DNA of 28,830 nt from Candidatus Heimdallarchaeota archaeon (GCA_015523565.1 WAKA01000008.1:1-28830), one strand, 5' to 3'; shown: positions 665-28,717, counted from the stretch's first letter. Numbers and translations: made by a program. The notes: generated from the sequence alone by a model not told the origin.

Positions 665-1201
665 TCAATGGATTGTCAATAAAATCTTGACAACAAAAAT
701 GTTCATAATCGGAATCAAAAGGAGTGAAAAAGTCAATCCTATGAAAATTCCAGCTATCACATCTAAAAGATAATGTTGCTTTGAAACCACTCTTTCTATG
801 CATACAAGAACCCCCCATATTCCTATAACTACAAAGGCAATGAAATTCTGTTGAAAAACCATTGCAAATGCAAAAATTGCCCCTATCCTTGCTGAATGCC
901 CTGACGGAAAGGAATATTGATCAAAAATATGTTCTTCCCGTTCCTTTTGTTTTGGTCGTTTTCTTTTGACTTTGAGTTTCAAAACCATTAAGAATCCAGT
1001 CATCAAGGCAATTGAAATCGTAAGTTCTATAAGAACCCAAATTTCCACATTAAGTAAAAAATAGAAATAGAAAAGAATGAATGCAAATGATTTTTGATTT
1101 GCAACAAATTTAAGGTAAGCTAGTGGATGTTCAATTCTTTCCAATTTCTCTGCAATAGTACGGGATGTATGCATATCCCATGAGATTACCCTGTCGATCA
1201 T
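665..1201 (-). CDS. PAP2 (type 2 phosphatidic acid phosphatase) superfamily membrane lipid phosphatase
   Basis: All three PAP2 motifs are present: K-x6-RP (KLKVKRKRP), SFPSGH, and (E)R-x5-H-x3-D (ERVVSKQHYLLD). Several hydrophobic helices. Overlaps the upstream gene by 4 nt. Confidence 0.9.
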   Translation of the reverse strand: MIDRVISWDMHTSRTIAEKLERIEHPLAYLKFVANQKSFAFILFYFYFLLNVEIWVLIELTISIALMTGFLMVLKLKVKRKRPKQKEREEHIFDQYSFPSGHSARIGAIFAFAMVFQQNFIAFVVIGIWGVLVCIERVVSKQHYLLDVIAGIFIGLTFSLLLIPIMNIFVVKILLTIH

Positions 1202-2052
1202 AAACTCAACTTGATTTTCCCTTGGTTCACAAGAGACCTGACAAGATCCAACTGGTTTGGCTTATCCACGTCAAATCCCAAAACAGCATAATCTGAAACT
1301 ACTCCTTTTATCCTCGCATTGATTACCTTTGAGATTATCTTTTCTGCTTCAGGAATACTCACCTTATGCAACATGAATTTGAAAAATGCTAATGGCGAAA
1401 TAAAGAAGGCCTGCTTAATTACGCTTTTTCGATTATTCAGTATTTTTTCAATTATCTCCTTTCTTTCATTCGCCAAGGTATATCTAACCAATTGCAAATC
1501 TCCTCCACAGAATCTTCCCTCTTTCATATGTGCATAAGTTCTTTTGTTGTTTGGGAATTTTTGATTCATGGTTTCCTCCCTAATTATTGAAAAGAAAAAA
1601 TCTGCTTCATCAAGTCTGCATTTATCAATGAAATCATTGATTGCTTCTGGCGTAATGGTCGGGACGTCTCCGCCTATGAAAAGAGCATATTCTGTTTCGA
1701 GTTTTTGGTTCACTAGATATTTTGAAGCCTCAATAATTTTTTCTGCATGCGTTCCATCATTTTCAATAAAATTTATCGGTATTTTCTTGAACTCTTCTGG
1801 AATCTCCAATCTTTCTTCAGGTAGACCTACAATAAGGATTTCCGAAATTCTTCCACTATCCAAGAAGGATTTGATAAGATACAATATCATTGGTTTCCCA
1901 TTGATTTCAATAAGGGCTTTATAATCAATGTTGGCGTACTCCAAAAGCTTATCCTTCTTGAATTTTTTGCTTCCCGGTTTTTCAGTGCCTGCAAGTATCA
2001 CCAGTGGAAATCGTTTGATTTTATCATTCATGGCTTCTTCCTTCAAAATCAT
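1198..2052 (-). CDS. MobA/CobY-like nucleotidyltransferase (NTP_transf_3 type), substrate unknown; start may be the ATG at 2031
   Basis: N-terminal VILAG...YKALIEINGKPM nucleotide-binding signature, GDVP, and C-terminal DVDKP. Confidence 0.78.
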   Translation of the reverse strand: MILKEEAMNDKIKRFPLVILAGTEKPGSKKFKKDKLLEYANIDYKALIEINGKPMILYLIKSFLDSGRISEILIVGLPEERLEIPEEFKKIPINFIENDGTHAEKIIEASKYLVNQKLETEYALFIGGDVPTITPEAINDFIDKCRLDEADFFFSIIREETMNQKFPNNKRTYAHMKEGRFCGGDLQLVRYTLANERKEIIEKILNNRKSVIKQAFFISPLAFFKFMLHKVSIPEAEKIISKVINARIKGVVSDYAVLGFDVDKPNQLDLVRSLVNQGKIKLSL

Positions 2053-2117
2053 ATTGAAATGGGACTTTATTATTTCTTTTGTTCAATACTGTTTTTGCCA
2101 TTATGTGGCTGATTCTC

Positions 2118-3494
2118 CTAAAAATTCCAGTTAAGTTTCTCATTTCTTAATTTTCTCCATTTTTCCAATTCATTGGGGTTTTCAGGATATTGTGAATAAA
2201 TTTGTTTGACTACATCTATGCTTTTAATCATGCGTTGTAAGCTGAGAATTGAACCCCATTTTGGAAAAACCCTAAATACCCTTTTTAGTTGTTCAAACAC
2301 TGAAAGCTTAATTTTTTGACCTCTTACTAGTTTATCAAGATCCTCATTTGTGAAAAACTGTTTTCTAATTAAATACTCCAACCCATTACTTCCAATGTTT
2401 TCAAGGAATTGCCTGATTAAAAGACCTATCGCGTGTTTTTCTCCCAAATGATTCATGATCTGTCTATTGTATTGCCATAAGGAATTATCAGAGTAATCCC
2501 CCTTACTCAACGCATAATCACAAGCCAGTGCGCAGTAATACCCACTTTCTAAAGCAGGACCGTGCCCTTCCGCAGTTGTAGGATGAACCAAACATGCGGC
2601 ATCCCCGACCAAAGCTCCACCATTGAAAACCAACGTATCAAATGGCGGTCGAATGGGAATTTGTCCACCCCCCGATTTTAATACACGATACATGTCTTGG
2701 GAATAGTATTTTTTCATTTCCTTTAGAAATGCCTCTTTCAACGGTGGCATGTTCTTTTCACTTTTTAGCCATCCAATACCGATATTTAGTTGGTTATCTC
2801 CTTTTGAGAAAATCCAAAAATACCCTGGAATAGGAATTGATTTTTCGTAGAGGAGAACAATTTCATTCTTCCATTGATGGTATTTTACGCCCTCATTTAA
2901 TTCAATTATTTCTCGATATGTTGGCCAAACCATGTCTGGACTGATTTCTTTTGAAATAATCCCGTTATAACGCATACTTTCAGGGAGTTTTTTTCTGATG
3001 ACTGCATATGAGCCTGAAGCATCTATTGTTAAATGTGCCTTAAGTGACTTTTTCTCATTCCCTTGATAAAAAACCACACCACATAGCTGATTGTTTTCTA
3101 CAATTATGTCCCTTACTGGTGCCTGAGGAATTATGGTGACCCCTTCTTTCTCACATAGGTCCAATAGTCTCTTGGCATATTCCAACCTATCAACAACGTA
3201 ACCTGGTGCAGTTAATGTTGCTTTATTGTCAATGTTGTTGGCTGCAATGCTCATATATCTAATAATATCAGAAACTTCCTTGCCATGAGGCTCATCTATC
3301 CCTAAGTTTTCCTTGAGTAGGTCAACAGTTTGTTTGTCCAATGCATCCCCGCATGTCTTGTCTCCAATTCTATCTCTTTTCTTTTTGTCAAGCAATGCAA
3401 CAGAATGTCCTTTTCTAGCTAATGTAAAAGCACATATGCTACCTGCCGGTCCTCCTCCAACTACTATCGCATCATAGTCTACTTCTCGGCTCAT
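2118..3494 (-). CDS. Geranylgeranyl reductase family FAD-dependent oxidoreductase (digeranylgeranylglycerophospholipid reductase-like)
   Basis: VVGGGPAGS dinucleotide fold, KTCGDA, IDASG, PGYFWIF (YxWxF), and LVGDAA..VHP...EG. Confidence 0.88.
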   Translation of the reverse strand: MSREVDYDAIVVGGGPAGSICAFTLARKGHSVALLDKKKRDRIGDKTCGDALDKQTVDLLKENLGIDEPHGKEVSDIIRYMSIAANNIDNKATLTAPGYVVDRLEYAKRLLDLCEKEGVTIIPQAPVRDIIVENNQLCGVVFYQGNEKKSLKAHLTIDASGSYAVIRKKLPESMRYNGIISKEISPDMVWPTYREIIELNEGVKYHQWKNEIVLLYEKSIPIPGYFWIFSKGDNQLNIGIGWLKSEKNMPPLKEAFLKEMKKYYSQDMYRVLKSGGGQIPIRPPFDTLVFNGGALVGDAACLVHPTTAEGHGPALESGYYCALACDYALSKGDYSDNSLWQYNRQIMNHLGEKHAIGLLIRQFLENIGSNGLEYLIRKQFFTNEDLDKLVRGQKIKLSVFEQLKRVFRVFPKWGSILSLQRMIKSIDVVKQIYSQYPENPNELEKWRKLRNEKLNWNF

Positions 3495-10600: not shown

Positions 10601-11542
10601 ATGGGAACAGGAACTCCCTTAAGGTCAAAAATTCTAAAAGACATGATGTACCTTTCTTTTAAAATAATTGAAGAGAAGAAGGATTATTTGGATTCAATAA
10701 ATGTATTTCCCGTTCCAGATGGGGACACAGGGATCAACATGTACTTAACACTCAAGTCTGTCTGTAACCAGCTTGACAAAGTGAAATTAGTTAATAAGAA
10801 TACTGTCTGCCAAGCAATTATCGATGGGTCTTTTATCGGGGCAAAAGGGAATTCAGGAACGATTCTTTCCCAATATCTGAATGGGTTTGCCAATTCTTTG
10901 AAAAATTCTAGAGAAATCACCCCAATCTCTTTTGCAGAAGCACTAAAAAAAGGAACGGAAAAAGCATATGACTCTGTTTTTAACCCAAAAGAAGGAACAA
11001 TGCTTACGGCATTCAAGAAAGTATCTGAAAAGGCACAAGTGGTTTTAGACCTTCCTTGGTCAGAATTTATGCATGAATTGTTTAAAACGGCACAACAAGC
11101 AACCTTGGAAACAAGGGAAATGCTTGAAGCCCTTAAAAAAGGAGGTGTGGTGGATTCTGGTGCAATGGGCTTCGTCTATATTTTTCAAGGATGGACAGTC
11201 ACCATTGAAGAGGCAGTGAATCATAATCAACATGAAGAAACCTTGATTTCTGGATTGGAAGGACTAAAAAGCCATATTGATCTACAGGAAGTCACTAATG
11301 ACACAAAGTTCAGATATTGTACTGAAGCTCTAATAGAAATCTCACAGGATTTTAACAATAATGTAAAGGATCATTTCAAGGCTTTTGGTGAATATCTTAT
11401 GATAACAAGGGATAACTCTCTATTGAAATTACATATCCATACAGATGAGCCATCCAAAGTCTTGAACGAATTTGCAAATTTCGGAAGAGTGAAATCAATT
11501 AAAGTGGATGATATGGTTTCTCAAGCTGTGCTATCAGACTGA
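10601..11542 (+). CDS. DAK2-domain protein, FakA/YloV-like (N-terminal and middle domains only)
   Basis: INVFPVPDGDTG.NM, GAKGNSG.ILSQ, EGTMLT, GVVDSGA.G, FRYCTE, LHIHT and KVDDM. Confidence 0.88.
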   Translation: MGTGTPLRSKILKDMMYLSFKIIEEKKDYLDSINVFPVPDGDTGINMYLTLKSVCNQLDKVKLVNKNTVCQAIIDGSFIGAKGNSGTILSQYLNGFANSLKNSREITPISFAEALKKGTEKAYDSVFNPKEGTMLTAFKKVSEKAQVVLDLPWSEFMHELFKTAQQATLETREMLEALKKGGVVDSGAMGFVYIFQGWTVTIEEAVNHNQHEETLISGLEGLKSHIDLQEVTNDTKFRYCTEALIEISQDFNNNVKDHFKAFGEYLMITRDNSLLKLHIHTDEPSKVLNEFANFGRVKSIKVDDMVSQAVLSD

Positions 11543-11617
11543 TATTTATGCATTAATTCAACAAATTTTCTTTTTCATTACCGATTAATATTAAAAAAGA
11601 TTGAAAAAGATGGGCTA

Positions 11618-13306
11618 ATGAAAAATCAGGATCAAGTCTTATCTTTGTCCAATTATTTGGATGGCTATGATATTGCTACATTTAAGAAATTATACATAAT
11701 TGGACTTATTATTGGTTTTATTCTTCGAATGATTTATTCTTTGACTGCTATTGGCATTTATCATCCTGATGAAATCTTTCAATCAATTGAAATGGCTCAT
11801 TATCTGGTATATGGATATGGTTTCATCCCTCCAGAGTTTAGAACCTCAAATAGTATCACTCCTTCATATGCTAAGGCAAGGTCTTGGATCATTCCGTTGT
11901 TTATTGCCTTTTACTTTAGATTTGCTGAGTTTATGGGTTGGTCCTATTGGGGCGTTACACTTCCAATCCTTCGTGTGTTAATCGGTTTCAATTCTTTTCT
12001 AATGATTCCTTCAACCAAATCACTTGCCGAATCAATTAGCAAAGATAAAAGGGTTGGATATGTTAGTGGCTTTTTTGTTGCTATCTGGTGGAAAATTGCA
12101 TATATCACTTCAAGACCACTGTTCAATGTTTTTTTCCTTCCAATTTACTTATATGCAATTTCATTGTTTTATAGGCGGTTGAGTTCACATCAACAAACAA
12201 AATTAACAATTAAAGAATGGATTGTATATTTTTTTGGGTTCGGAATAAGTACTTATGTAAGGTTGGATTTCTTAATACTTCTATTTTCTTTTACCATTGT
12301 CAATTATTACTTTGAAAGAAAAGCAAACAGGACTGATTTGTTTTTCAATCAAATCAATACTGCCCTAATTACTGGCATTCTAGGATGGTTGTTTGGTATG
12401 GCAGTTGATGCCCAAATGTATGAGGGTTGGAAGGATTTTGGTGTTGTTCCTATTCACTGGTTCCAATTTAATATTGTTGAAAGCAAATCTGATGGGTTTG
12501 GGGTAGTTCCATTTGGCTGGTATGGCTATCGCCTAATTGTAGTTAGTGGATTGATAACTATCACCTTAGCATTATTGCTTTTTGGAGGAATTTTGGTTTA
12601 TCTCCACAAAAACAAACCAGAACAAATTCCTGTTCTTTTCCCAAATCGCACACTTCTTTTTGAGTTTGAAAAACTATTTCTCGTTGTTATACTTGCTTGG
12701 ATAATTTATGAGACGCCATGGCGTGCAGGTCTCTTGTTTTGGCTCTCAAAAAGCCATAAGGAAGAACGATTTGTCATGAATCTCTATTTTATTTATTTTA
12801 TTCTCCTTGCAATGATGGTTGTTCTTCTTGCTGAATTCCTTGAAAGATATCTTGATCAATCCAAAACCCATATTCCAAAACATTTCAAAAAAAGACTAAC
12901 TCCTCAGATGTCTTACAACTTAACAATTTTTCTTTTTATCGGACTTATCACATTTTCATCACTTCTGAATATCCTTTTTGTGCCTAGTCAACAATATGGG
13001 GCGGATATCACGAAAGCGATTGTTTATGTTGGTCGTCAAGAAGATGTTACTGGTGTCATCATTGTCGAAAAATGGTATTTAACTACATCGTATTCTTATC
13101 TGCATAAGGATGTGCCTCTTTATTGGATAAATTATGATCTTCCGAAGGAATTCAGTGATTTAATACAAAATACGGTTGTTAACTATATTATTGTACCTAA
13201 ATACAAATATGCTTTAATTTCCAATCTATTTCAGGAGCTTGTTGACAATGGTTTTCTGATAACAAAAATCATTGACGGAACCACTGAAATTTGGTTCCGT
13301 GCTTGA
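11618..13306 (+). CDS. GT-C fold mannosyltransferase of the Alg9/PIG-B (GT22) family
   Basis: HPDEIFQSIEMAHYLVYGYG matches the PIG-B luminal-loop motif PDExxQxxExAH...GYG. Also has the following RS and HKEERF (HKExRF family motif). About 10-12 TM helices. Confidence 0.85.
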   Translation: MKNQDQVLSLSNYLDGYDIATFKKLYIIGLIIGFILRMIYSLTAIGIYHPDEIFQSIEMAHYLVYGYGFIPPEFRTSNSITPSYAKARSWIIPLFIAFYFRFAEFMGWSYWGVTLPILRVLIGFNSFLMIPSTKSLAESISKDKRVGYVSGFFVAIWWKIAYITSRPLFNVFFLPIYLYAISLFYRRLSSHQQTKLTIKEWIVYFFGFGISTYVRLDFLILLFSFTIVNYYFERKANRTDLFFNQINTALITGILGWLFGMAVDAQMYEGWKDFGVVPIHWFQFNIVESKSDGFGVVPFGWYGYRLIVVSGLITITLALLLFGGILVYLHKNKPEQIPVLFPNRTLLFEFEKLFLVVILAWIIYETPWRAGLLFWLSKSHKEERFVMNLYFIYFILLAMMVVLLAEFLERYLDQSKTHIPKHFKKRLTPQMSYNLTIFLFIGLITFSSLLNILFVPSQQYGADITKAIVYVGRQEDVTGVIIVEKWYLTTSYSYLHKDVPLYWINYDLPKEFSDLIQNTVVNYIIVPKYKYALISNLFQELVDNGFLITKIIDGTTEIWFRA

Positions 13307-16300
13307 CCTTTCTTCTTAAAACAACTAGCATTGGCAATATGAAAATCCAATATTTGGCATAGGCAAGAAATGCATTTTGGGTAACAGATGTAATACTTAC
13401 TGTAGTTGGTCCAATCGCATTTACTATAAAATCTGCCTGTGCACTATTGTTTCCTTTGTCAACAATTTTAATTTCATACTTATATTTCCCTGGTGTTCCT
13501 TCAATTATCTCTAATGTAATTGAATTTACTTGACTACTCGTATTGTAAACAAGCTGTCCATTCTTTTTGATGGTCACTTCTTGGACAAACTTTTCTTCCC
13601 ATTCCCATTTTACGGTTCTTTTTTCTCCAATATTAATTTGAAAATCACTTATTTCATTGATTTTAGGGGCTGTAAGATCTTTCCATATAATGGTGGAACT
13701 AAAATTGAGGATATTTTCAGACGTGTCCACAATATCCACTTTAAGTTCTGCTTGCGTGTTTGGTACTCCTGAAACTATTATTGGAAATGCCGATCCATTC
13801 CATGGGCGTAAAAATGCAAGCACGGTATCGTTATAAGTCACTTTGATAGAATATGGAAATGGTTCATTCACATTAAACAAGATTTCCTGAATTTCTGTGG
13901 CGTCTAATTCTATATTGGAAGATAGGTCAATAATAGGCGCAAGTTTGTCTATTCCTGTAATAAATATTGTATTGGTGGCACTTTTCCCATCTGTTGATAA
14001 AACCTGCGCTGTTACATTAAAGGTTTTCAAATCTGTTGGGGTAAAGGAAAAAACAATATTTGAACCATTCCACGCATTTTCTTCAGCAATATTCCCGTCA
14101 ACAAATATCCTGTATTTCTCAGGTTTGTCAGCACCTGCCTTCCACTCAATATTGACACTTTCAAAGGCTTGCACTTCCAATATCTCTATGTTACTTGTTA
14201 TAAAAATTTCATTGGCGAATGTTACCGTTGCAACATCTGACACTGTATTCCCTGCAAGGTCTTCTGCAACTACCTTGAACTCATAAATCCCTGGAGGTTG
14301 AATTGAAGGGTCAATAATGAGTGTACCTGATCCCTGTGTGGATTCAGCAAGAATAGATGTTCCAATCATGGCACGAACTGATTTTATTCCTGAATTGTCA
14401 TTTGCGGTATATGAGATGGCAAACTGCTGATCCACTGTCATGTCTGTCAGGTTTGTTGTCAATGATGGCAAAACTGTATCAATTGTAAAAGAAAATGTCT
14501 TGTTGTCTTTTTGTTTTGTAATTGCATTGCTTTCTTCCAAAGAAATTGTATGTAGTCCATCACCCAATCCCGTCACTACATATCCACTGGAAATAATCCC
14601 CAAATCATTTCCATCAATTGTGGCATGTACTCTATTGGTGACAGATTCAAATGTAATGGGAAGATCATTTAAATTAACGAATCCATTGATTTCTGGAAGG
14701 ATTGGTGTTACAGATGGTATAAAATCACGGCTTAATACAACTAAATGGACATTATCGATGTTGTTTATCGAATCCCGCAATTTTAAAGAGAATATAAATT
14801 CTGTTGTTGAATTGACCAATATTGATATGTTTCCAACAGCATTTCCCGCTGACGCATCAACAAATTTGTGGCTAACTATTTGTGGATCCCCTGTTGATGT
14901 TGGTGTTCCTGAAATAACAAGTAAGTCCACTTTAGCTCCTTTTGGAACAGTTGCCCAAAAGTCATATTGTTGACCCGTTTGCAATGAGACCCTTATGGAT
15001 GCACTGTTTTGAATGTATGGATTTTCTAAACTCAAATCTGCTTTAATTGGCTGGTTTGCTTGCTTTACTGTGGAAATAATATCTAATGCCATTTTTGCAT
15101 TGACAATTCCCCATCCTTCTACATAGTCTTTAGTTGTAGGGGTAATGGGTGGATTCTGTTTAGTGCCTCCCTGTAATTGTTCTCCTCCATTGTATATGTT
15201 TCCTGCTTCATATGCGGTGGAAAGGATGGCCTGCTTTATTTTTTTCACGTCTTCCACTGAATGTGTCCATGACGATTGCATTTTCAATTTCTGATACATT
15301 AACATTGCGAGACCAGAAATATGCGGTGCGGCCATACTTGTTCCTTGCAGTCCTTCTAATGTTTGACCAGTGAACCAACTTGTTTCCCCTGAAGCCGCTG
15401 ACAGGATTAATCCATTGCCTTCTTGATATCCTGATAAATCTCCCAAAGCTGGAATTGCAACAGATCCTCCTGGAGCAAGAATATCTGGTTTCACAAATGT
15501 ATTTACATTAGGGTCCCCATTGCTAGAATAATATGCAACCTCATTAACCCTATTGACCGCACCCACTGTCAATGACATTTCTGCTGAACCTGGGGATCCA
15601 ATCCCTCCAGAATTGACCCCCTCATTTCCTGCTGAAGAGACAACCAAAATTCCAGCATTTGCCAAGTCTGCAACGGCAGAATCAACAATGGCAGATATTG
15701 TGTCTGTTCCAAGACTCATGTTAACAACTGTAATATTATAGGTATCCTTATTGTTGAGCACCCAGTCCATTCCTGCGATTAAAGTTCCTGAATCTCCGTT
15801 TCCTAGATCATCAAAAACCTTGACTGAGACAATGCTGGCATCTGGTGCTACCCCTCTGTAAGAACGATACGTATCTTTCGGTAATTGCATATCATCGGGT
15901 ATTGTTGTGATTATCTCAAATTTTTGACCTTCAGGATCTCCTGTTGATGTTGAAAAACTGCCTACCCATAAGAAATAATCTCCTGCATCAAGTGTTATGA
16001 TGTCTGAATAATTCCCACTTGTGTCTGTTTGGGAAAATGCAATTGCATTGTTGATGTCATCTACAGTAGTCACCAAGACAACAATGGATGTGCTTGGATT
16101 ATCCTTTCCTTGATTTCCCCAATCTATTGTATACTCAATCTTTGTCTGCGCTGGAATATTGGGCAAACTTTCTACAATTCTGAAAAAGCCTTTCTGTGGA
16201 ATTGTTCCTTTAACAATTTGCAATGGTCTATCCAGTCCCACACCTGCTGCAATTCCTGCAACATGGGTTCCATGTCCATTTTTGTCTATAGGTTCTAGGT

Positions 16301-16871
16301 ATTCGTCTCCTGTCACAGATGATGATACTCCAGCAACATCTTTCCAAACAATGTTCTTTCCTTTAAACATCGGATGTGTTGCATCTATCCCTGTATCTAA
16401 AATCGCTATGGACTGACTGGGATCTCCTTCTATTCCAAGATCCCAAATATTTGTTCTTACTCCCATTTGAGGGACGGAATATGCTAAGTGAGTTTTAATT
16501 TTCTCAATTCCTTCAATTATCAAAATCTCCTGACTTTTTGCCAAATCAAAAAGATTCTTCACCCTTCCATCAACTATTACAGTAGAAAATGCATTAAATA
16601 CAGATTCAATTTGCAAATTGAAACTTTTCAGAAGATTTACATTTACTTCTTTGGCAAATTTCACTAGAAATCTTCCTGATATCATTTTTTCAATATTATC
16701 GGCAATCTTGTTTCCATTCTTGTCAATGAGTTTCACTTTGTTCTGAATTTCATTTGGTATTGCTGATTTCTTGTCGATTTCCTGATGGATGATCCTTTTT
16801 TCACCAATTGAATTTGAAGAAATTGGTGTTGCCAGCATCAACACAATAAGACATATTATCTTTAACTTCAC
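13269..16871 (-). CDS. Secreted, C-terminally anchored subtilisin-like (S8) serine protease with Ig-like C-terminal domains
   Basis: Signal peptide and propeptide. Catalytic motifs ILDTG, HGTHVAG, SAGNEG and GTSMAAP. Repeated D..AP / Y...V.D.AGN beta-sandwich motifs. Ends in a hydrophobic helix plus RRKVK. Confidence 0.93.
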   Translation of the reverse strand: MKLKIICLIVLMLATPISSNSIGEKRIIHQEIDKKSAIPNEIQNKVKLIDKNGNKIADNIEKMISGRFLVKFAKEVNVNLLKSFNLQIESVFNAFSTVIVDGRVKNLFDLAKSQEILIIEGIEKIKTHLAYSVPQMGVRTNIWDLGIEGDPSQSIAILDTGIDATHPMFKGKNIVWKDVAGVSSSVTGDEYLEPIDKNGHGTHVAGIAAGVGLDRPLQIVKGTIPQKGFFRIVESLPNIPAQTKIEYTIDWGNQGKDNPSTSIVVLVTTVDDINNAIAFSQTDTSGNYSDIITLDAGDYFLWVGSFSTSTGDPEGQKFEIITTIPDDMQLPKDTYRSYRGVAPDASIVSVKVFDDLGNGDSGTLIAGMDWVLNNKDTYNITVVNMSLGTDTISAIVDSAVADLANAGILVVSSAGNEGVNSGGIGSPGSAEMSLTVGAVNRVNEVAYYSSNGDPNVNTFVKPDILAPGGSVAIPALGDLSGYQEGNGLILSAASGETSWFTGQTLEGLQGTSMAAPHISGLAMLMYQKLKMQSSWTHSVEDVKKIKQAILSTAYEAGNIYNGGEQLQGGTKQNPPITPTTKDYVEGWGIVNAKMALDIISTVKQANQPIKADLSLENPYIQNSASIRVSLQTGQQYDFWATVPKGAKVDLLVISGTPTSTGDPQIVSHKFVDASAGNAVGNISILVNSTTEFIFSLKLRDSINNIDNVHLVVLSRDFIPSVTPILPEINGFVNLNDLPITFESVTNRVHATIDGNDLGIISSGYVVTGLGDGLHTISLEESNAITKQKDNKTFSFTIDTVLPSLTTNLTDMTVDQQFAISYTANDNSGIKSVRAMIGTSILAESTQGSGTLIIDPSIQPPGIYEFKVVAEDLAGNTVSDVATVTFANEIFITSNIEILEVQAFESVNIEWKAGADKPEKYRIFVDGNIAEENAWNGSNIVFSFTPTDLKTFNVTAQVLSTDGKSATNTIFITGIDKLAPIIDLSSNIELDATEIQEILFNVNEPFPYSIKVTYNDTVLAFLRPWNGSAFPIIVSGVPNTQAELKVDIVDTSENILNFSSTIIWKDLTAPKINEISDFQINIGEKRTVKWEWEEKFVQEVTIKKNGQLVYNTSSQVNSITLEIIEGTPGKYKYEIKIVDKGNNSAQADFIVNAIGPTTVSITSVTQNAFLAYAKYWIFILPMLVVLRRKVKHGTKFQWFRQ

Positions 16872-16927
16872 AAAAGAGAGTTACATTTATTCTAATAAAT
16901 TAATTCATTATTCTGTCTGAACTTTTC

Positions 16928-18775
16928 CTATTTTTCACCTTTCTTTTTTAGAAGTATGATGGGAAGCAACATTGCCAAAAATGCCAATATTGATAGAGGG
17001 GTTGTATTGTTGGTCGCCCTGCTACTTGTCGGTACTGTAATTGAAACTGTTTGGGTAATTCTTATAATGTTTCCTGCTTTGTCCTTGATAATCAATCTAA
17101 TGTCGTAATCTCCTGATTTCCTATATTGATGTGACACTGAAGTTTTATTAGTTACGTCTTCCACTAGTCCGTCTCCCCATTCAATATATGCGGAAAGTAC
17201 TCCTGATCCGCTATCTGATGCTGAAAGACTGACTGAGGCAGTTCCATTATTCGCTATGATATCTAACGTTCCTGTTGGTGTTGTGTGATCAACAAGCAAA
17301 TAAACGGTATAAGCTCTTGTTTTATTCAATGTATTTGTTATGTTCAATATGATTGTATAATTTCCTTCAGTGGATAATGTCAATGTTGTATTGGCTTTTT
17401 TATCCAAATTTTCAGATCCCTTTATGTTAATGCTTGACAAGTTATCATCATTCAATCCATAAAAGATAAATGCGTCTTTAATTTTACCCTTTTCCGTTTT
17501 TGCACTGAAGAAGATTACTAACTCTGTCTTATTTGTAATGGAATTATTTGCCATGAACAATTTTCCAGATGGTCTTGAATCCACGATTTCAAATAATTTT
17601 TTATTTAAATATTCAGTATAGTTTCTGTTTTTCACGTATGGCTGGAATTCAACCTTTTGGTCGAATTTTAAGGTTTGATTCAACTCAAATCTATATTCGG
17701 TCACTAATGTAGTGGCAACTGTTACATTGTTGACTGTCTTGTTTACCTCATATGGTGTCGTAATGTTGAACAATCGGACGTCAGTCCAGTTTGTCGGTTC
17801 ATTGTCTGTTAAATTGTCGTAGAACCTATAACGGACATAGACCAAATCTTCGTTTGTTTGGTTATATGTTGTCACATTAAATCCTATTTTATCCAAATCT
17901 GTGAATTCTCTTTTATCAAAATCATACAAGGTGGAATTAAAGATGAAATAGCTGGATAATTTATGGACAATTCCTGCTGTGGAATCTTGTGCTTTTCTTT
18001 CCCACCCCTTGGAATTAAAGGCAGAGAAGAAAACCACCCGTGTTTTCAAGGTATAATTGAATGCAAATGTTGTATAATTTGTCTGTTTGTCAAATTTGAC
18101 AAACGTCATGTTGTATTGCACTGAGCTGGTTTTATTGTATATGTTTGTATTATTGTCACTAAATGCAATGACTGCATTTGTCTTATTGTTAGGATCATAT
18201 ACTCTGTAATTGATGGTGACTGTTTCACCAAGCTGTGTTACGTAATCCTTTATTGACCCTTCCTGAAAGGTTGCATTACGAATTGAATCAAACTCTGGAT
18301 AACGTTCTCCTTGTTTTACCCAAAGATATCTATATGCATTTCCATTTTCCCTGTCTTGATCAATTGTCGTGAATTCTTCCCTTGTCCCATTAGTTACACT
18401 TCCAGACCAAGCCCATGCATAATATTTTGTGAATTCTGTTACATTCAACTCTATTGAATAATAACTAAAAGCCTTAAACTTTCTATCAAGCGTGAAGGAG
18501 AAGTTCAATGTCTTGGCAAGCTGGACATCCTCTGTCAGATTACTTCCTTGCCCCAAGAGCAATATACCGTCCACTGCAAATCTATCTGCCTTATATGAAA
18601 TTTTGACAGTGGTATTGACATCAAATACGTATCTCTCAACTGGAACGTTGTCAACACTTACTCTTTCAAATATTGGGGCAGGCACTGTCCCGTCTGATTG
18701 TGCATAGGTATGGGCTGGAACAAGCCCACCAACCATTGATACCAAAATCATTAAAACGATAATCCTTCCTTTCAT
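16928..18775 (-). CDS. Secreted cell-surface glycoprotein with a C-terminal PKD domain and membrane anchor (start probably ATG 18775 or 18787, not TTG 18871)
   Basis: Signal peptide MKGRIIVLMILVSMVGGLVPAHTYA, about 33 N-x-S/T sequons, PKD motif IEWGDG...SHQY...GDY.IRL...D, and a C-terminal hydrophobic helix plus KKK. Confidence 0.8.
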   Translation of the reverse strand: MKGRIIVLMILVSMVGGLVPAHTYAQSDGTVPAPIFERVSVDNVPVERYVFDVNTTVKISYKADRFAVDGILLLGQGSNLTEDVQLAKTLNFSFTLDRKFKAFSYYSIELNVTEFTKYYAWAWSGSVTNGTREEFTTIDQDRENGNAYRYLWVKQGERYPEFDSIRNATFQEGSIKDYVTQLGETVTINYRVYDPNNKTNAVIAFSDNNTNIYNKTSSVQYNMTFVKFDKQTNYTTFAFNYTLKTRVVFFSAFNSKGWERKAQDSTAGIVHKLSSYFIFNSTLYDFDKREFTDLDKIGFNVTTYNQTNEDLVYVRYRFYDNLTDNEPTNWTDVRLFNITTPYEVNKTVNNVTVATTLVTEYRFELNQTLKFDQKVEFQPYVKNRNYTEYLNKKLFEIVDSRPSGKLFMANNSITNKTELVIFFSAKTEKGKIKDAFIFYGLNDDNLSSINIKGSENLDKKANTTLTLSTEGNYTIILNITNTLNKTRAYTVYLLVDHTTPTGTLDIIANNGTASVSLSASDSGSGVLSAYIEWGDGLVEDVTNKTSVSHQYRKSGDYDIRLIIKDKAGNIIRITQTVSITVPTSSRATNNTTPLSILAFLAMLLPIILLKKKGEK

Positions 18776-18940
18776 AAGAAACGCCATCTTTGAATTCTCA
18801 ATTCTTCCGCCTGAAAAATTATTAAAAAGTAATTCTATACGTTTACCTCTTGAAGCATGATTCTTTTTCAAGCTGATGACGCTTATCTGATAATGCTTGT
18901 CTTTTTTATTTCCATGCCCAATATCAAAGGTCTGATCTTC

Positions 18941-25578: not shown

Positions 25579-26859
25579 ATGCTAGATCCAAAACTGTTAA
25601 GAGAAAATCCTGATTTTGTCAAGGAAAACCTTGCAAAACGACAAAATGATGAATATCTGCAAATGGTGGATGAGTTTCTTGAAGTGGATGATCGTTGGCG
25701 AAAACTCATCAAACAGGTGGAAGAACTAAGAAAAAAACGAAATCAATATGCGAAACAAATTTCCAAATTGAAAGGGGACGAAAAAAAACAATCCGTGCAA
25801 AAGGTTCAAGAGATCAAGCAACAGTTGGAAAGGTTGGAAAAAGATTTGGTTGATGCAGAGACAAAAAGACAATGGCTTCTTGACCGTATTCCTAACCTTT
25901 TGCATGAGACTGTTCCTTTCGGGGAAAGTGATGAAGACAATGTGCCTATCCGCTTTTGGGGAGAGAAGCCTGAATTTTCTTTCGAACCAAAAGATCATCA
26001 TGAACTGCTTGAAATAAATGATCTTGCTGACATTGAAAGGGCCCGTAAAGTTTCTGGCGCTCGTTTTTATTACCTAAAAAATGAAGCTACTCTATTGGAA
26101 TTGGCGCTTGTTCAATATGCCCTCAATATCCTAAAAGAAGAAGGCTTTAATCTGTTTACTCCTCCAACTTTAGTAAGGGAACGCGCTCTTTATGGCACTG
26201 GTTTCCTGCCTACAGGAAAAGAAGACATTTACAAAATCGAAGGGGAAGACCTAAACCTAATTGGGACAAGTGAAGTGGCTCTTGGTGCCTTTCATATGGA
26301 TGAAACTCTTTTGGAGGAACAACTGCCCCTAAACTATTGTGGCATATCCAGTTGTTTTAGAACTGAAGCATCCGCAACAACAAAGGATGATAAAGGCATA
26401 TTTCGGGTACATGAGTTCAAGAAGGTTGAAATGTTCAAGTTCGTTCATCCTGAAAAGTCTTGGGATGAGCAGGAAGAAATGATCCGAATTGCAGAGAAGG
26501 TATTTCAAGGTCTAGGACTTCACTATAGGGTAGTCAATATTTGTACTGGTGATATTGGCGCAGTGGCTGCAAGAAAATATGATATTGAAGTATGGATGCC
26601 TGGACAGGGAAGATACAGGGAAGTCGTATCATGCTCCAATTGTACTGATTATCAAGCACGTCGTTTGAATGTAAAATATAGGGAAAAAGAAGGTATGCCA
26701 CCAAAAGGTTTTGTCCATACTCTAAATTCAACGGCAATTGCAACAACCCGTGCAATAGTTGCCATTCTTGAGAACTATCAACAGCCTGATGGGTCTATAC
26801 TTATTCCAGAAAAACTACAGAAATACACTGGATTTGACAAAATTAGTCCTAAACATTAA
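25579..26859 (+). CDS. serS: Serine--tRNA ligase (standard type)
   Basis: MLD...LR, N-terminal coiled coil, IPN, SGARFYYL, GTSE, CFRTEA, GIFRVHEF.KVE, KYDIE.W.P, EVVSCSNCTDYQARRL, HTLNST and ILEN.Q. Confidence 0.97.
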   Translation: MLDPKLLRENPDFVKENLAKRQNDEYLQMVDEFLEVDDRWRKLIKQVEELRKKRNQYAKQISKLKGDEKKQSVQKVQEIKQQLERLEKDLVDAETKRQWLLDRIPNLLHETVPFGESDEDNVPIRFWGEKPEFSFEPKDHHELLEINDLADIERARKVSGARFYYLKNEATLLELALVQYALNILKEEGFNLFTPPTLVRERALYGTGFLPTGKEDIYKIEGEDLNLIGTSEVALGAFHMDETLLEEQLPLNYCGISSCFRTEASATTKDDKGIFRVHEFKKVEMFKFVHPEKSWDEQEEMIRIAEKVFQGLGLHYRVVNICTGDIGAVAARKYDIEVWMPGQGRYREVVSCSNCTDYQARRLNVKYREKEGMPPKGFVHTLNSTAIATTRAIVAILENYQQPDGSILIPEKLQKYTGFDKISPKH

Positions 26860-28717
26860 ATTTCTTTTTCTTTTTCATTACTATTCCAAAAAGCAACATT
26901 GCAAAAACTGATATCGTTAGATTTACTGTTGCTTGACTTTCTTGTGTATCATTATTGACTACACTATTCACGGCTTCCCCATCCACTTTTGTCGCGGCTA
27001 TCTGTGATGCAACTTCTGTTACACCAGTATCTGTTTTTTCTTTGAGAATTTCAGATAAGATCATTGAAGTAAAGTTTGGAATCAATAGACCATATTTAAT
27101 GCCAATTTCAACAATCTCGCTTTTTATGCTTGGGTCTGGGTCTTCATTGTATATTTTCTGCAATTGGTTTACTTTTTGTAAAGCCCAAAGCAGTTCTGCA
27201 TGTTGATATCCTGTTTCATTCAAAAACGCAACTTCTTCCGAATGGTAGGTGGAATTTCCAATTAGGAAATCTGCAGTCAACCTAATTTTATTTGCCTTGA
27301 ACATTCCTGTAATAATGATTTCTGATCCATTCTGCAAGTCGGCAACTCCTTGTGTCAAATTAATGTTAAGGGTTGAAACGATAATGCCATCAGAAATTCC
27401 AATAACAATCTGCTTGATTTTAGGTATCGTTAACTGACCAAAAAGTCCTACAACAGCATCATTCATGTCTTCATCATTTTCAACAAAGACGTAGACCCCA
27501 CTATTGTCTGATGCGATATTTTCCAATAATTCTTGATCTGCTCCAGAACCGATTGCTATTGTAGATATCTGTACATTCAATGTATTTGTCTCTTTTACAT
27601 GTTCCCTGATAACACTTGAATTTGTTGACGTTCCTGCTGTTGCTTGTCCATCTGAAATGAAGATTAGAAGTTTCTCTCCTTGAGATGGGTAAAACAGGTT
27701 TAAAGATTCTGTAAATGCTCCATAAATATTTGTGGAACCACCAGCACTCAATGAAGTAATGAACTCACTTGCGCTTTGCTTGTTATCTTCAGTTGCTGGA
27801 CGAACCTCATCCCACATGGTATCGACATTTGAATTAAAGATGACTATGTTGAACTCATCATTTGGAGATAAGACTTCAATAATGTTCAACAAGGCATTTT
27901 TCGCTTGGCTTATTCTGGTACCTGCCATAGATCCAGAAACGTCGAGTGTAAAGATTATTTGGCGTGACATGTTTGCTGACTGTACCTCGACCTTTGGAGC
28001 CAAAAAGAAGGCAAAATAACCAACTGATCCATTTGAATAGGAAATTAAGGATGTTCCAACGTCATAATCATTTGTGACATAGATAAGTTTTGCATATGAA
28101 TCTAAGCCCATTATGAATTTATTCACTTTTATGTGATAACCACCATCAATTATGTCAAAAATGCCGCCTTGAATTCCGTCCATCTTTACTGCAATAATTT
28201 CTGAAAGGTGGGAAATCACCTTCAAGTCAACAGATAATTCTATTCCTGAAACGTACTCTGGTGCACTTGGTGTAAACTTAAAAGAATACTGTCCAAATGA
28301 TCGTTGCAATGACCCTTCCATAAATAATTTCACATTCAGTTTCTCATTTACGGGATTATTTATTTTCAACAGGATTGCTGATTGCTGAAATTCAATAAGC
28401 ATTCCTATTCTTTTTTGGGTAACTGTTTCATTGTAAATTTCCTGTGCTTCCTTTGCCTCAACTACTTTGCCCCATAATGTCACGTTTGAATTGTAAAGTG
28501 TTGCATTGCTCAAAAACAATCCTTTCTGTCTTGGGAGGTAAAAATCAAAATCTTCAGTATTAGGGTCTATTGCAAGAGAATAGGTAATATTTACATAATT
28601 GTCAACTATTGACCCTTCTACACTGACAGAAAGTAATGGTGCCGCATTTGGCATGTTCGGGAAATATCCTGATAATAACAAAATTATCCATAATATGGTT
28701 AACTTTTCCTTTTTCAT
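26849..28717 (-). CDS. Secreted VIT + VWA domain protein (inter-alpha-trypsin inhibitor heavy-chain-like architecture) with C-terminal anchor
   Basis: Signal peptide, VIT-like F.LP...F.S...GKV.E..EA..IY, GYFAFFLAP, an intact MIDAS (DVSGSM, GGSTN, SDG), LWA...FTSMIL, and a C-terminal hydrophobic helix plus KKKKK. Confidence 0.87.
   Translation of the reverse strand: MKKEKLTILWIILLLSGYFPNMPNAAPLLSVSVEGSIVDNYVNITYSLAIDPNTEDFDFYLPRQKGLFLSNATLYNSNVTLWGKVVEAKEAQEIYNETVTQKRIGMLIEFQQSAILLKINNPVNEKLNVKLFMEGSLQRSFGQYSFKFTPSAPEYVSGIELSVDLKVISHLSEIIAVKMDGIQGGIFDIIDGGYHIKVNKFIMGLDSYAKLIYVTNDYDVGTSLISYSNGSVGYFAFFLAPKVEVQSANMSRQIIFTLDVSGSMAGTRISQAKNALLNIIEVLSPNDEFNIVIFNSNVDTMWDEVRPATEDNKQSASEFITSLSAGGSTNIYGAFTESLNLFYPSQGEKLLIFISDGQATAGTSTNSSVIREHVKETNTLNVQISTIAIGSGADQELLENIASDNSGVYVFVENDEDMNDAVVGLFGQLTIPKIKQIVIGISDGIIVSTLNINLTQGVADLQNGSEIIITGMFKANKIRLTADFLIGNSTYHSEEVAFLNETGYQHAELLWALQKVNQLQKIYNEDPDPSIKSEIVEIGIKYGLLIPNFTSMILSEILKEKTDTGVTEVASQIAATKVDGEAVNSVVNNDTQESQATVNLTISVFAMLLFGIVMKKKKKFNV

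Follow-up and report, generated by a model that had tools for sequence, protein, structure and literature searches.

A 28,830-nucleotide stretch of the genome of Candidatus Heimdallarchaeota archaeon (GCA_015523565.1, WAKA01000008.1:1-28830; hereafter, the window) encodes a 562-aa membrane protein of glycosyltransferase family 22 (GT22) that, judged by its sequence and modelled fold, is a genuine relative of ALG9, ALG12, and PIG-B, the mannosyltransferases of the eukaryotic endoplasmic reticulum (ER). By analogy with these enzymes, the archaeal protein would mannosylate, on the outer face of the cytoplasmic membrane, either an N-glycan precursor or an N-glycan already bound to protein, a reading to which we assign a probability of roughly 0.55. 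The window comes from contig C8 of a 3.57-Mb genome (denoted G000) that consists of 233 contigs and is 90% complete; the gene at 11618-13306 on the plus strand is the only GT22 gene in it. The gene lies next to genes for two surface proteins, an S8 family protease and a PKD-domain glycoprotein, and this position can be put down to local synteny; the genes form neither an operon nor a dedicated system. The gene and the parts of its product discussed below are as follows (window coordinates):

11618-13306, plus strand: gene for the GT22 (Alg9-like) GT-C mannosyltransferase, 562 aa, assigned by PF03901 and the model fold, single copy
11762-11821, plus strand: HPDEIFQSIEMAHYLVYGYG, the first outer-loop helix, starting at residue 49, with D51/E52 as the putative catalytic acid
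12755-12772, plus strand: HKEERF motif, starting at residue 380
12995-13303, plus strand: C-terminal alpha/beta domain, approximately residues 460-562, predicted from the model and alignments to be extracytoplasmic

The Pfam model PF03901 (Glyco_transf_22) matches the protein with 98.8 bits, compared with a cut-off of 23.8, over model positions 6-414 of 414. The first-pass annotation, made from the same DNA, had already assigned the 562-aa protein to GT22 and placed the two motifs at nucleotides 11762 and 12755, and in both respects our results agree with it. Among 44 homologues, D51, D264, Y302, K381, and R384 are invariant, and E52, Q55, E58, H61, R88, H380, E382, and F385 are conserved in at least 90% of the sequences. 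In profile alignments, HKEERF is matched by HKE(E/F)RF in PIG-B, ALG9, and bacterial GT22 proteins. An AlphaFold model, for which the 44 homologues served as input, has a mean pLDDT of 92.8. A helix comprising residues 51-65 is modelled directly after the first transmembrane (TM) helix, and strands and helices are modelled beyond the last one (residues 429-454). The equivalent helix, which is the first one of the first lumenal loop, holds the catalytic base of ALG9 (D82) and of ALG12 (E35), two enzymes that also possess a C-terminal domain on the lumenal side (PMC13503287). The C-terminal domain of the window protein aligns over its full length with the bacterial GT22 counterpart, and with that of PIG-B only at its start. 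A Foldseek search with the model retrieved chicken ALG12 (9s6t) and human ALG9 (9s6u, 9s6s) as the best PDB matches (E-values of 1e-9 to 1e-8, TM-scores of 0.56-0.71), with STT3/AglB/PglB, Pmt4 (rank 22), and ArnT behind them. Taken as tests of family membership, the above-threshold match across the whole domain, the GT-C(A) fold, and the acidic loop residue together with the HKE-x-RF motif were all found.

The same search bears on the possibility that the protein glycosylates proteins directly, by O-mannosylation or by extension of O-glycans on Ser/Thr-rich stalks that precede C-terminal membrane anchors. Related GT-C enzymes (PMT, GT39) O-mannosylate proteins from dolichol-phosphate-mannose (Dol-P-Man), some of the archaeal homologues are labelled "glycosyltransferase family 39" by NCBI, and the linkers in front of the anchors in the C-terminally anchored proteins of this genome (see below) consist of 32% Ser+Thr, compared with 12% genome-wide. 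However, the Pfam assignment is to GT22, not to PMT, ALG12 and ALG9 are the top structural neighbors with Pmt4 only 22nd, and the characterized GT22 enzymes all use a lipid-linked acceptor. The genome also contains another GT-C-like open reading frame (ORF), a multi-TM protein of at least 804 aa (contig G000:C29, within ~14959-17370; L054:1-2412, minus strand) with sub-threshold matches to PMT_2 (24 bits) and ALG3 (18-20 bits), which may be a further GT-C glycosyltransferase. Direct O-glycosylation by the window protein thus appears improbable.

For N-glycan mannosylation, we infer by analogy which donor is used, on which side of the membrane the reaction takes place, and what accepts the mannose. 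The protein would be an active GT-C enzyme with its N-terminus in the cytoplasm, its acidic HPDE motif on the first outer loop, and its C-terminal globular domain outside the membrane. Working as its homologues ALG9 and ALG12 do, it would take mannose from Dol-P-Man at the outer surface of the cytoplasmic membrane and add it to a glycan with inversion to an alpha linkage. The likeliest acceptor would be a flipped dolichol-(pyro)phosphate-linked N-glycan precursor that is later transferred by AglB; the other possible acceptor would be an N-glycan already on protein, as with Haloferax AglS. The gene itself would be a stand-alone housekeeping gene. Action on the outer face with a polyprenol-phosphate mannose donor, as the first-pass annotation had proposed, gains support from the relationship to ALG9 and ALG12, whose structures have been solved, and mannosylation of a lipid-linked N-glycan, one of its two options for the acceptor, is plausible. 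AglB and Dpm1, which had been named there as genes relevant to such a pathway, both have counterparts in the genome. There is one STT3/AglB (167.8 bits), and there is one DPM1-like GT2 family protein of 232 aa without TM helices (G000:C232, ~75325-76023; L056:1477-2175), for which the best PDB match, over the catalytic domain, is the Dol-P-Man synthase of Pyrococcus (5mlz, E-value of 3e-29). In having no membrane anchor of its own, the DPM1-like protein resembles metazoan DPM1. Numerous surface proteins rich in sequons (see below) are a further feature of the genome that would suit an N-glycan pathway.

Several points weigh against N-glycan mannosylation. The GT22 gene is not located near aglB or other glycosyltransferase genes, and the product of the DPM1-like GT2 could be a Dol-P-hexose other than Dol-P-Man. 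We know of no prokaryotic GT22 with an established substrate. Furthermore, in two families of the class to which the window's genome belongs, GT22 is present in just 12 of 29 (f2) and 5 of 21 (f5) genomes and hence would be dispensable there, although the incompleteness of metagenome-assembled genomes (MAGs) may explain some of the absences.

Close homologues of the window GT22 are few, and all of them come from Asgard MAGs, with the related loci labelled Heimdallarchaeota. A profile search of the whole library yielded 2771 relatives, of which ~50 are full-length members of the same clade (hereafter, the Heimdall clade). When profiles were compared using hhalign, the Heimdall clade scored highest with uncharacterized bacterial GT22 proteins (438, E-value of 6e-57, with an alignment that extends along the full length and through the C-terminal domain), followed by PIG-B (200.8, E-value of 2e-25, columns 45-499) and ALG9 (80.7). 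The bacterial GT22 profile itself scored 342 with PIG-B, above the score of the Heimdall clade with PIG-B. The PDE..Q..E..H loop motif is also carried by bacterial GT22 proteins and, therefore, is ancestral rather than diagnostic of PIG-B.

Phylogenetic trees were built from 80 rows and, more carefully, from 45 rows under LG+C20 PMSF (posterior mean site frequency); the eukaryotic subfamilies represented in the trees and in the profile comparisons were PIG-B and ALG9, two of the four (the others being ALG12 and PIG-Z/SMP3). PIG-B and ALG9 form one clade to the exclusion of the window protein (support of 98 in the 80-row tree and 100/99 in the 45-row tree), and the window protein belongs inside an Asgard clade (96/91). 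The bacterial proteins (98/95) are joined, with weak support (88/72), to a second clade of archaeal proteins (95/88). The resulting unrooted split places PIG-B, ALG9, and the Heimdall clade on one side and the other archaeal and the bacterial GT22 proteins on the other. Approximately unbiased (AU) tests (LG+F+G4, fast searches) leave the deep GT22 nodes undecided: a topology with PIG-B as the sole sister of the Heimdall clade was not formally rejected (log-likelihood difference of 21, p = 0.10, bp-RELL of 0.027), and groupings of the eukaryotic proteins with bacteria or with the second archaeal clade gave p = 0.11 and p = 0.36, respectively. The first-pass annotation had called the enzyme PIG-B-type. 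This holds inasmuch as the profile is nearer to PIG-B than to ALG9, but the strongly supported PIG-B and ALG9 clade and the profile scores lead us to reject orthology with PIG-B, the AU value of 0.10 notwithstanding. As far as can be judged from sequence, the window GT22 represents a pre-duplication or parallel lineage and not a PIG-B orthologue.

If the root of the family lies among the bacteria, the Heimdall clade becomes the sister group of the eukaryotic enzymes. It is conceivable, although we would put this forward only tentatively, that no other prokaryotic lineage is as closely related to the entire ALG9/ALG12/PIG-B/PIG-Z family as the Heimdallarchaeial GT22 clade, which would then be the lineage from which this family descended vertically. 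Were this the case, the outer-face, Dol-P-Man-dependent extension of a lipid-linked glycan would predate both the ER and the split between the glycosylphosphatidylinositol (GPI) and N-glycan pathways, and would have been in place in the archaeal ancestor.

As a separate observation, uncharacterized GT22-like proteins of ~690-870 aa from invertebrates form a single clade (P0015, P0016, P0058, P0059, P0061, P0067, P0074, and P0146). The organisms include Haliotis, Gigantopelta, Sinanodonta, Mactra, the nemertean Tubulanus, and the scorpion Centruroides, and the named genes lie on contigs of 2 to ~130 Mb; a partial sequence from Elysia (P0013) was left out of the trees. This clade nests within the Asgard GT22 clade, apart from PIG-B and ALG9, and the monophyly of all eukaryotic proteins, the invertebrate clade included, was not rejected by the AU test (p = 0.17). 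Horizontal transfer or an old paralogue could account for it.

PF03901 was detected in 47 of the 301 Asgard genomes sampled. Apart from the window's own genome, 42 of the 46 GT22-positive genomes belong to its class, Heimdallarchaeia; the 4 hits beyond this class are weak (at most 24.8 bits). In addition to f2 and f5, the gene is present in all 10 genomes of the window's family (f1), all 3 of f4, all 11 of f6, and 1 of the 2 of f7. The big families elsewhere in the phylum had it in 0 of 76, 1 of 68 (sub-threshold), and 0 of 19 genomes. Among the genomes sampled, the clade of the window protein is restricted to Heimdallarchaeia.

The patchy presence in f2 and f5 and the stand-alone location of the gene would also fit an enzyme that mannosylates a non-protein glycoconjugate, such as a membrane glycolipid or lipoglycan (archaeol or an inositol lipid in mannosylated form would be examples) or an intermediate of a secreted polysaccharide. 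GT22 enzymes all use lipid-linked acceptors, the acceptor of PIG-B is a glycolipid, and the closest profile is that of the uncharacterized bacterial GT22 proteins, which come from cyanobacteria, Acidobacteriota, Bradymonadales, and Alphaproteobacteria; to our knowledge, most of the bacteria that carry such proteins are not known to N-glycosylate proteins. Conversely, there are no glycolipid-synthesis genes near the GT22 gene in the window, Asgard archaea have no known lipoglycan, and the genome clearly invests in N-glycoproteins. We consider a non-protein acceptor rather unlikely and favor mannosylation of the N-glycan or its lipid-linked precursor.

The lumenal mannosyltransferases of the N-glycan core and of the GPI anchor have long been seen as eukaryotic inventions. 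In BLASTp searches, Lombard (2016) detected no homologues of these glycosyltransferases among prokaryotes (PMC4973528), and a 2024 phylostratigraphy preprint dated ALG3/9/12 to the origin of eukaryotes. In 2026, a study in Nature reported Asgard ancestry, in bulk, for the lumenal N-glycan transferases and the GPI-pathway proteins (PMC12872458), and a 2026 preprint is in agreement. Asgard ancestry is thus already published, and the locus described here adds not a new system but an intact, Heimdall-restricted test case: a concrete example for the claim of Asgard ancestry, from the class regarded as closest to eukaryotes. Dol25-P-Man and lipid-linked oligosaccharide substrates, which have already been applied to ALG9 and ALG12, would also suit an assay of the expressed archaeal protein.

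The genes adjacent to GT22 in the window are the following:

13269-16871, minus strand: S8 subtilase, 1200 aa, with a signal-like N-terminus and a C-terminal TM segment followed by RRKVKH (PF00082, 157.5 bits)
16928-18871, minus strand: PKD-domain surface glycoprotein with a TPLS..TM..KKKGEK tail (PKD_4, 33.8 bits)
10601-11542, plus strand: Dak2/FakA-like half protein (PF02734, 128.9 bits; PF21645, 67.4 bits)

The true start of the PKD protein is probably the Met at 18787 or 18775. This protein contains 34 N-x-S/T sequons, 30 of which are N-x-T, compared with 10.2 +/- 2.7 in the shuffled sequence, which bears out its earlier description as extremely sequon-rich; the S8 protease is not enriched (14 sequons, with 13.3 expected). 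A third surface protein of the window, with VIT and VWA domains (26849-28717), has a signal peptide, an architecture resembling inter-alpha-trypsin inhibitor, and a C-terminal TM segment with a KKKKK tail, and contains 14 sequons against 6.9 expected. The GT22 and S8 protease genes are convergent and, as had been pointed out previously, overlap at their 3' ends, by 38 nt.

From this arrangement, the first-pass annotation had derived its other option, a proto-GPI route in which a mannosylated glycolipid built by the GT22 enzyme would take the place of the C-terminal tails on the protease and the glycoprotein encoded next to it. Besides the profile score, which is nearer to PIG-B than to ALG9, this proposal is favored by the Asgard ancestry of eukaryotic GPI-pathway proteins (PMC12872458) and by the fact that GT22 adjoins two C-terminally anchored proteins in four related genomes. 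These are the window and L002, L003, and L006/L049, the only loci where the genes for the S8 protease, the PKD protein, and a winged-helix-RING protein follow GT22; in all of them, the entire 20-kb neighborhood is collinear, and the overlap between GT22 and the protease gene measures 38 nt in the window, 11 nt (L002), 6 nt (L003), and 4 nt (L006/L049). The adjacency with these three genes was not seen at L004, L005, and L048, which belong to the same family, nor in f2, f4, f5, and f6. The adjacency that the first-pass annotation had noted therefore does not extend past close, fully collinear genomes, and we reject a functional link between GT22, the protease, and the glycoprotein on the ground that their adjacency is confined to such relatives.

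The search for the pathway itself points in the same direction. Pfam searches for PIG-A (PF08288), PIG-C (PF06432), PIG-M (PF05007), PIG-V (PF04188), PIG-W (PF06423), PIG-U (PF06728), and the C13 transamidase (PF01650) gave no matches in the window's own genome, with the caveat that this genome is 90% complete and that the eukaryote-built models of PIG-M, PIG-V, PIG-C, and PIG-W matched no control genome. PIG-A, PIG-M, and C13, the genes that the proto-GPI proposal would lead one to expect, are among those not found. In three congeners, PIG-C, PIG-M, PIG-W, PIG-U, and C13 were likewise not found (PIG-A and PIG-V were searched in the window's own genome only). Across the 11 other f1 genomes, there were no matches for C13, PIG-C, or PIG-W (for the latter two, 0 of 12 with the window's own genome), 1 marginal match for PIG-M, and 2 marginal matches for PIG-U, none in the genus. 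The PIG-L-family matches in the genome are generic deacetylases.

Other Heimdall families do show some hits, which count in favor of a proto-GPI route. Partial C13-like matches (caspase-like core) occur in f2, f5, and f6, and some genomes have marginal PIG-M or PIG-U matches, mostly in ORFs of ~410-450 aa. Examples of contigs with hits of either kind are G238:C321, G133:C112, G217:C1, and G145:C103, and none lies in the window's genus. These hits may be the Asgard GPI-pathway relatives reported in PMC12872458. However, when counted from the rows listed for f2, C13 hits are found in 7 of the 12 GT22-positive and in 11 of the 17 GT22-negative genomes; being as frequent without GT22, they do not co-occur with it.

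The C-termini of the surface proteins are also at odds with a GPI anchor. GPI signals terminate in a hydrophobic stretch, without a cytoplasmic basic tail. Unlike these, the window tails end in RRKVKHGTKFQWFRQ, KKKGEK, and KKKKKFNV, and those of orthologues end in RKRLRL, KTRKKS, LRRRT, KKRKP, and KRKSRF. Archaeosortase had been listed in the first-pass annotation among the genes to look for, and the genome indeed encodes a heimdallarchaeosortase (NF045528, 217.2 bits with a cut-off of 130; G000:C4, ~11172-11936, minus strand; L064:1393-2157). The ORF was found with TIGR04178 and NF045528; the archaeosortase model PF09721 gave no match, a false negative; this model missed the Haloferax control as well.

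The combination of an N-terminal hydrophobic segment, a single C-terminal TM segment, and a basic tail is found genome-wide in 88 of the 2570 ORFs of at least 150 aa. In 33 of these 88 proteins, the motif [ST]P[AILFVM] is located 14-21 residues before the basic tail, compared with 3.6 +/- 1.7 in controls; the class includes the Ser/Thr-rich linkers mentioned above and has 2.28 sequons per 100 aa versus 0.62. From these sequence features, the [ST]P[AILFVM]-TM-K/R tail looks like the sorting signal of the heimdallarchaeosortase. The tail of the PKD protein fits this class; those of the S8 protease and the VIT-VWA protein are without [ST]P[AILFVM], and no NCBIfam C-terminal signal model reached its threshold on the three window tails (13269-13421, 16928-17080, and 26849-27001). 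A sortase gene is thus found together with many proteins that carry a tripartite C-terminal signal, and the surface proteins encoded beside GT22 would fit a sortase-type system better than GPI anchoring. Since 3.4% of the ORFs belong to the tail class, finding one of them as a neighbor of GT22 is unremarkable. No sign of GPI anchoring is seen in this 90%-complete genome, and given the missing PIG and C13 genes, the Lys/Arg-rich tails, the sortase with its ~88 same-tail proteins, the convergent gene order, and the PIG-B and ALG9 clade that excludes the window protein, we view a proto-GPI route as highly improbable. A tempting over-reading of the locus is thereby removed, and N-glycan mannosylation by a stand-alone GT22 enzyme remains our preferred interpretation.

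No glycosylation genes or other conserved partners flank GT22 at the archaeal and bacterial GT22 loci examined. The most persistent neighbor is the Dak2/FakA-like gene, which accompanies GT22 in the window, L002-L007, and L053, though not always in the same orientation. The remaining genes of the window, the Dak2/FakA-like one included, are housekeeping genes (PAP2, NTP transferase, geranylgeranyl-reductase-like, TiaS, MoxR/DUF58, methylase, PdxS/T, Ham1, SerRS, and VIT-VWA). The first three of these are consecutive minus-strand genes at 665-3494, ~8 kb from GT22; they encode a PAP2 phosphatase, an NTP transferase similar to MobA, and a geranylgeranyl-reductase-like flavoprotein, and may be related to polyprenol or another lipid carrier. 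L002 has kept the last two genes of this trio at its left end, where its sequence breaks off.

Compared with the known systems, the window GT22 resembles ALG9 and ALG12 in belonging to the same Pfam family, in its best structural matches, and in having an acidic residue on the helix that opens the first outer loop, the HKEERF motif, and a C-terminal extramembrane domain. It differs from them in its low identity (14-16%), in the low profile score with ALG9, and in its position outside the PIG-B and ALG9 clade, and no ALG3-like partner was found at the Pfam cut-off in the genome. With PIG-B/Gpi10 (GPI mannosyltransferase 3), it shares the loop motif PDE-x2-Q-x2-E-x-AH..GYG, but it is not an orthologue, and searches of its own genome did not reveal the remaining GPI-pathway components. 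The bacterial GT22 proteins (~480-520 aa) have the highest profile similarity, C-terminal domain motifs included, but form a separate clade and have no gene context in common with the window. The neighboring surface proteins are reminiscent of the archaeosortase system, with tripartite tails consisting of an S/T linker, a hydrophobic stretch, and a basic end. AglS of Haloferax volcanii, in work cited in PMC4973528, is a Dol-P-Man mannosyltransferase that acts on a protein-bound N-glycan outside the membrane; no evident sequence relationship of AglS to the eukaryotic lumenal glycosyltransferases has been reported (PMC4973528). The parallel is a functional analogy, and as such AglS provides an archaeal precedent for outer-face mannosylation from Dol-P-Man.

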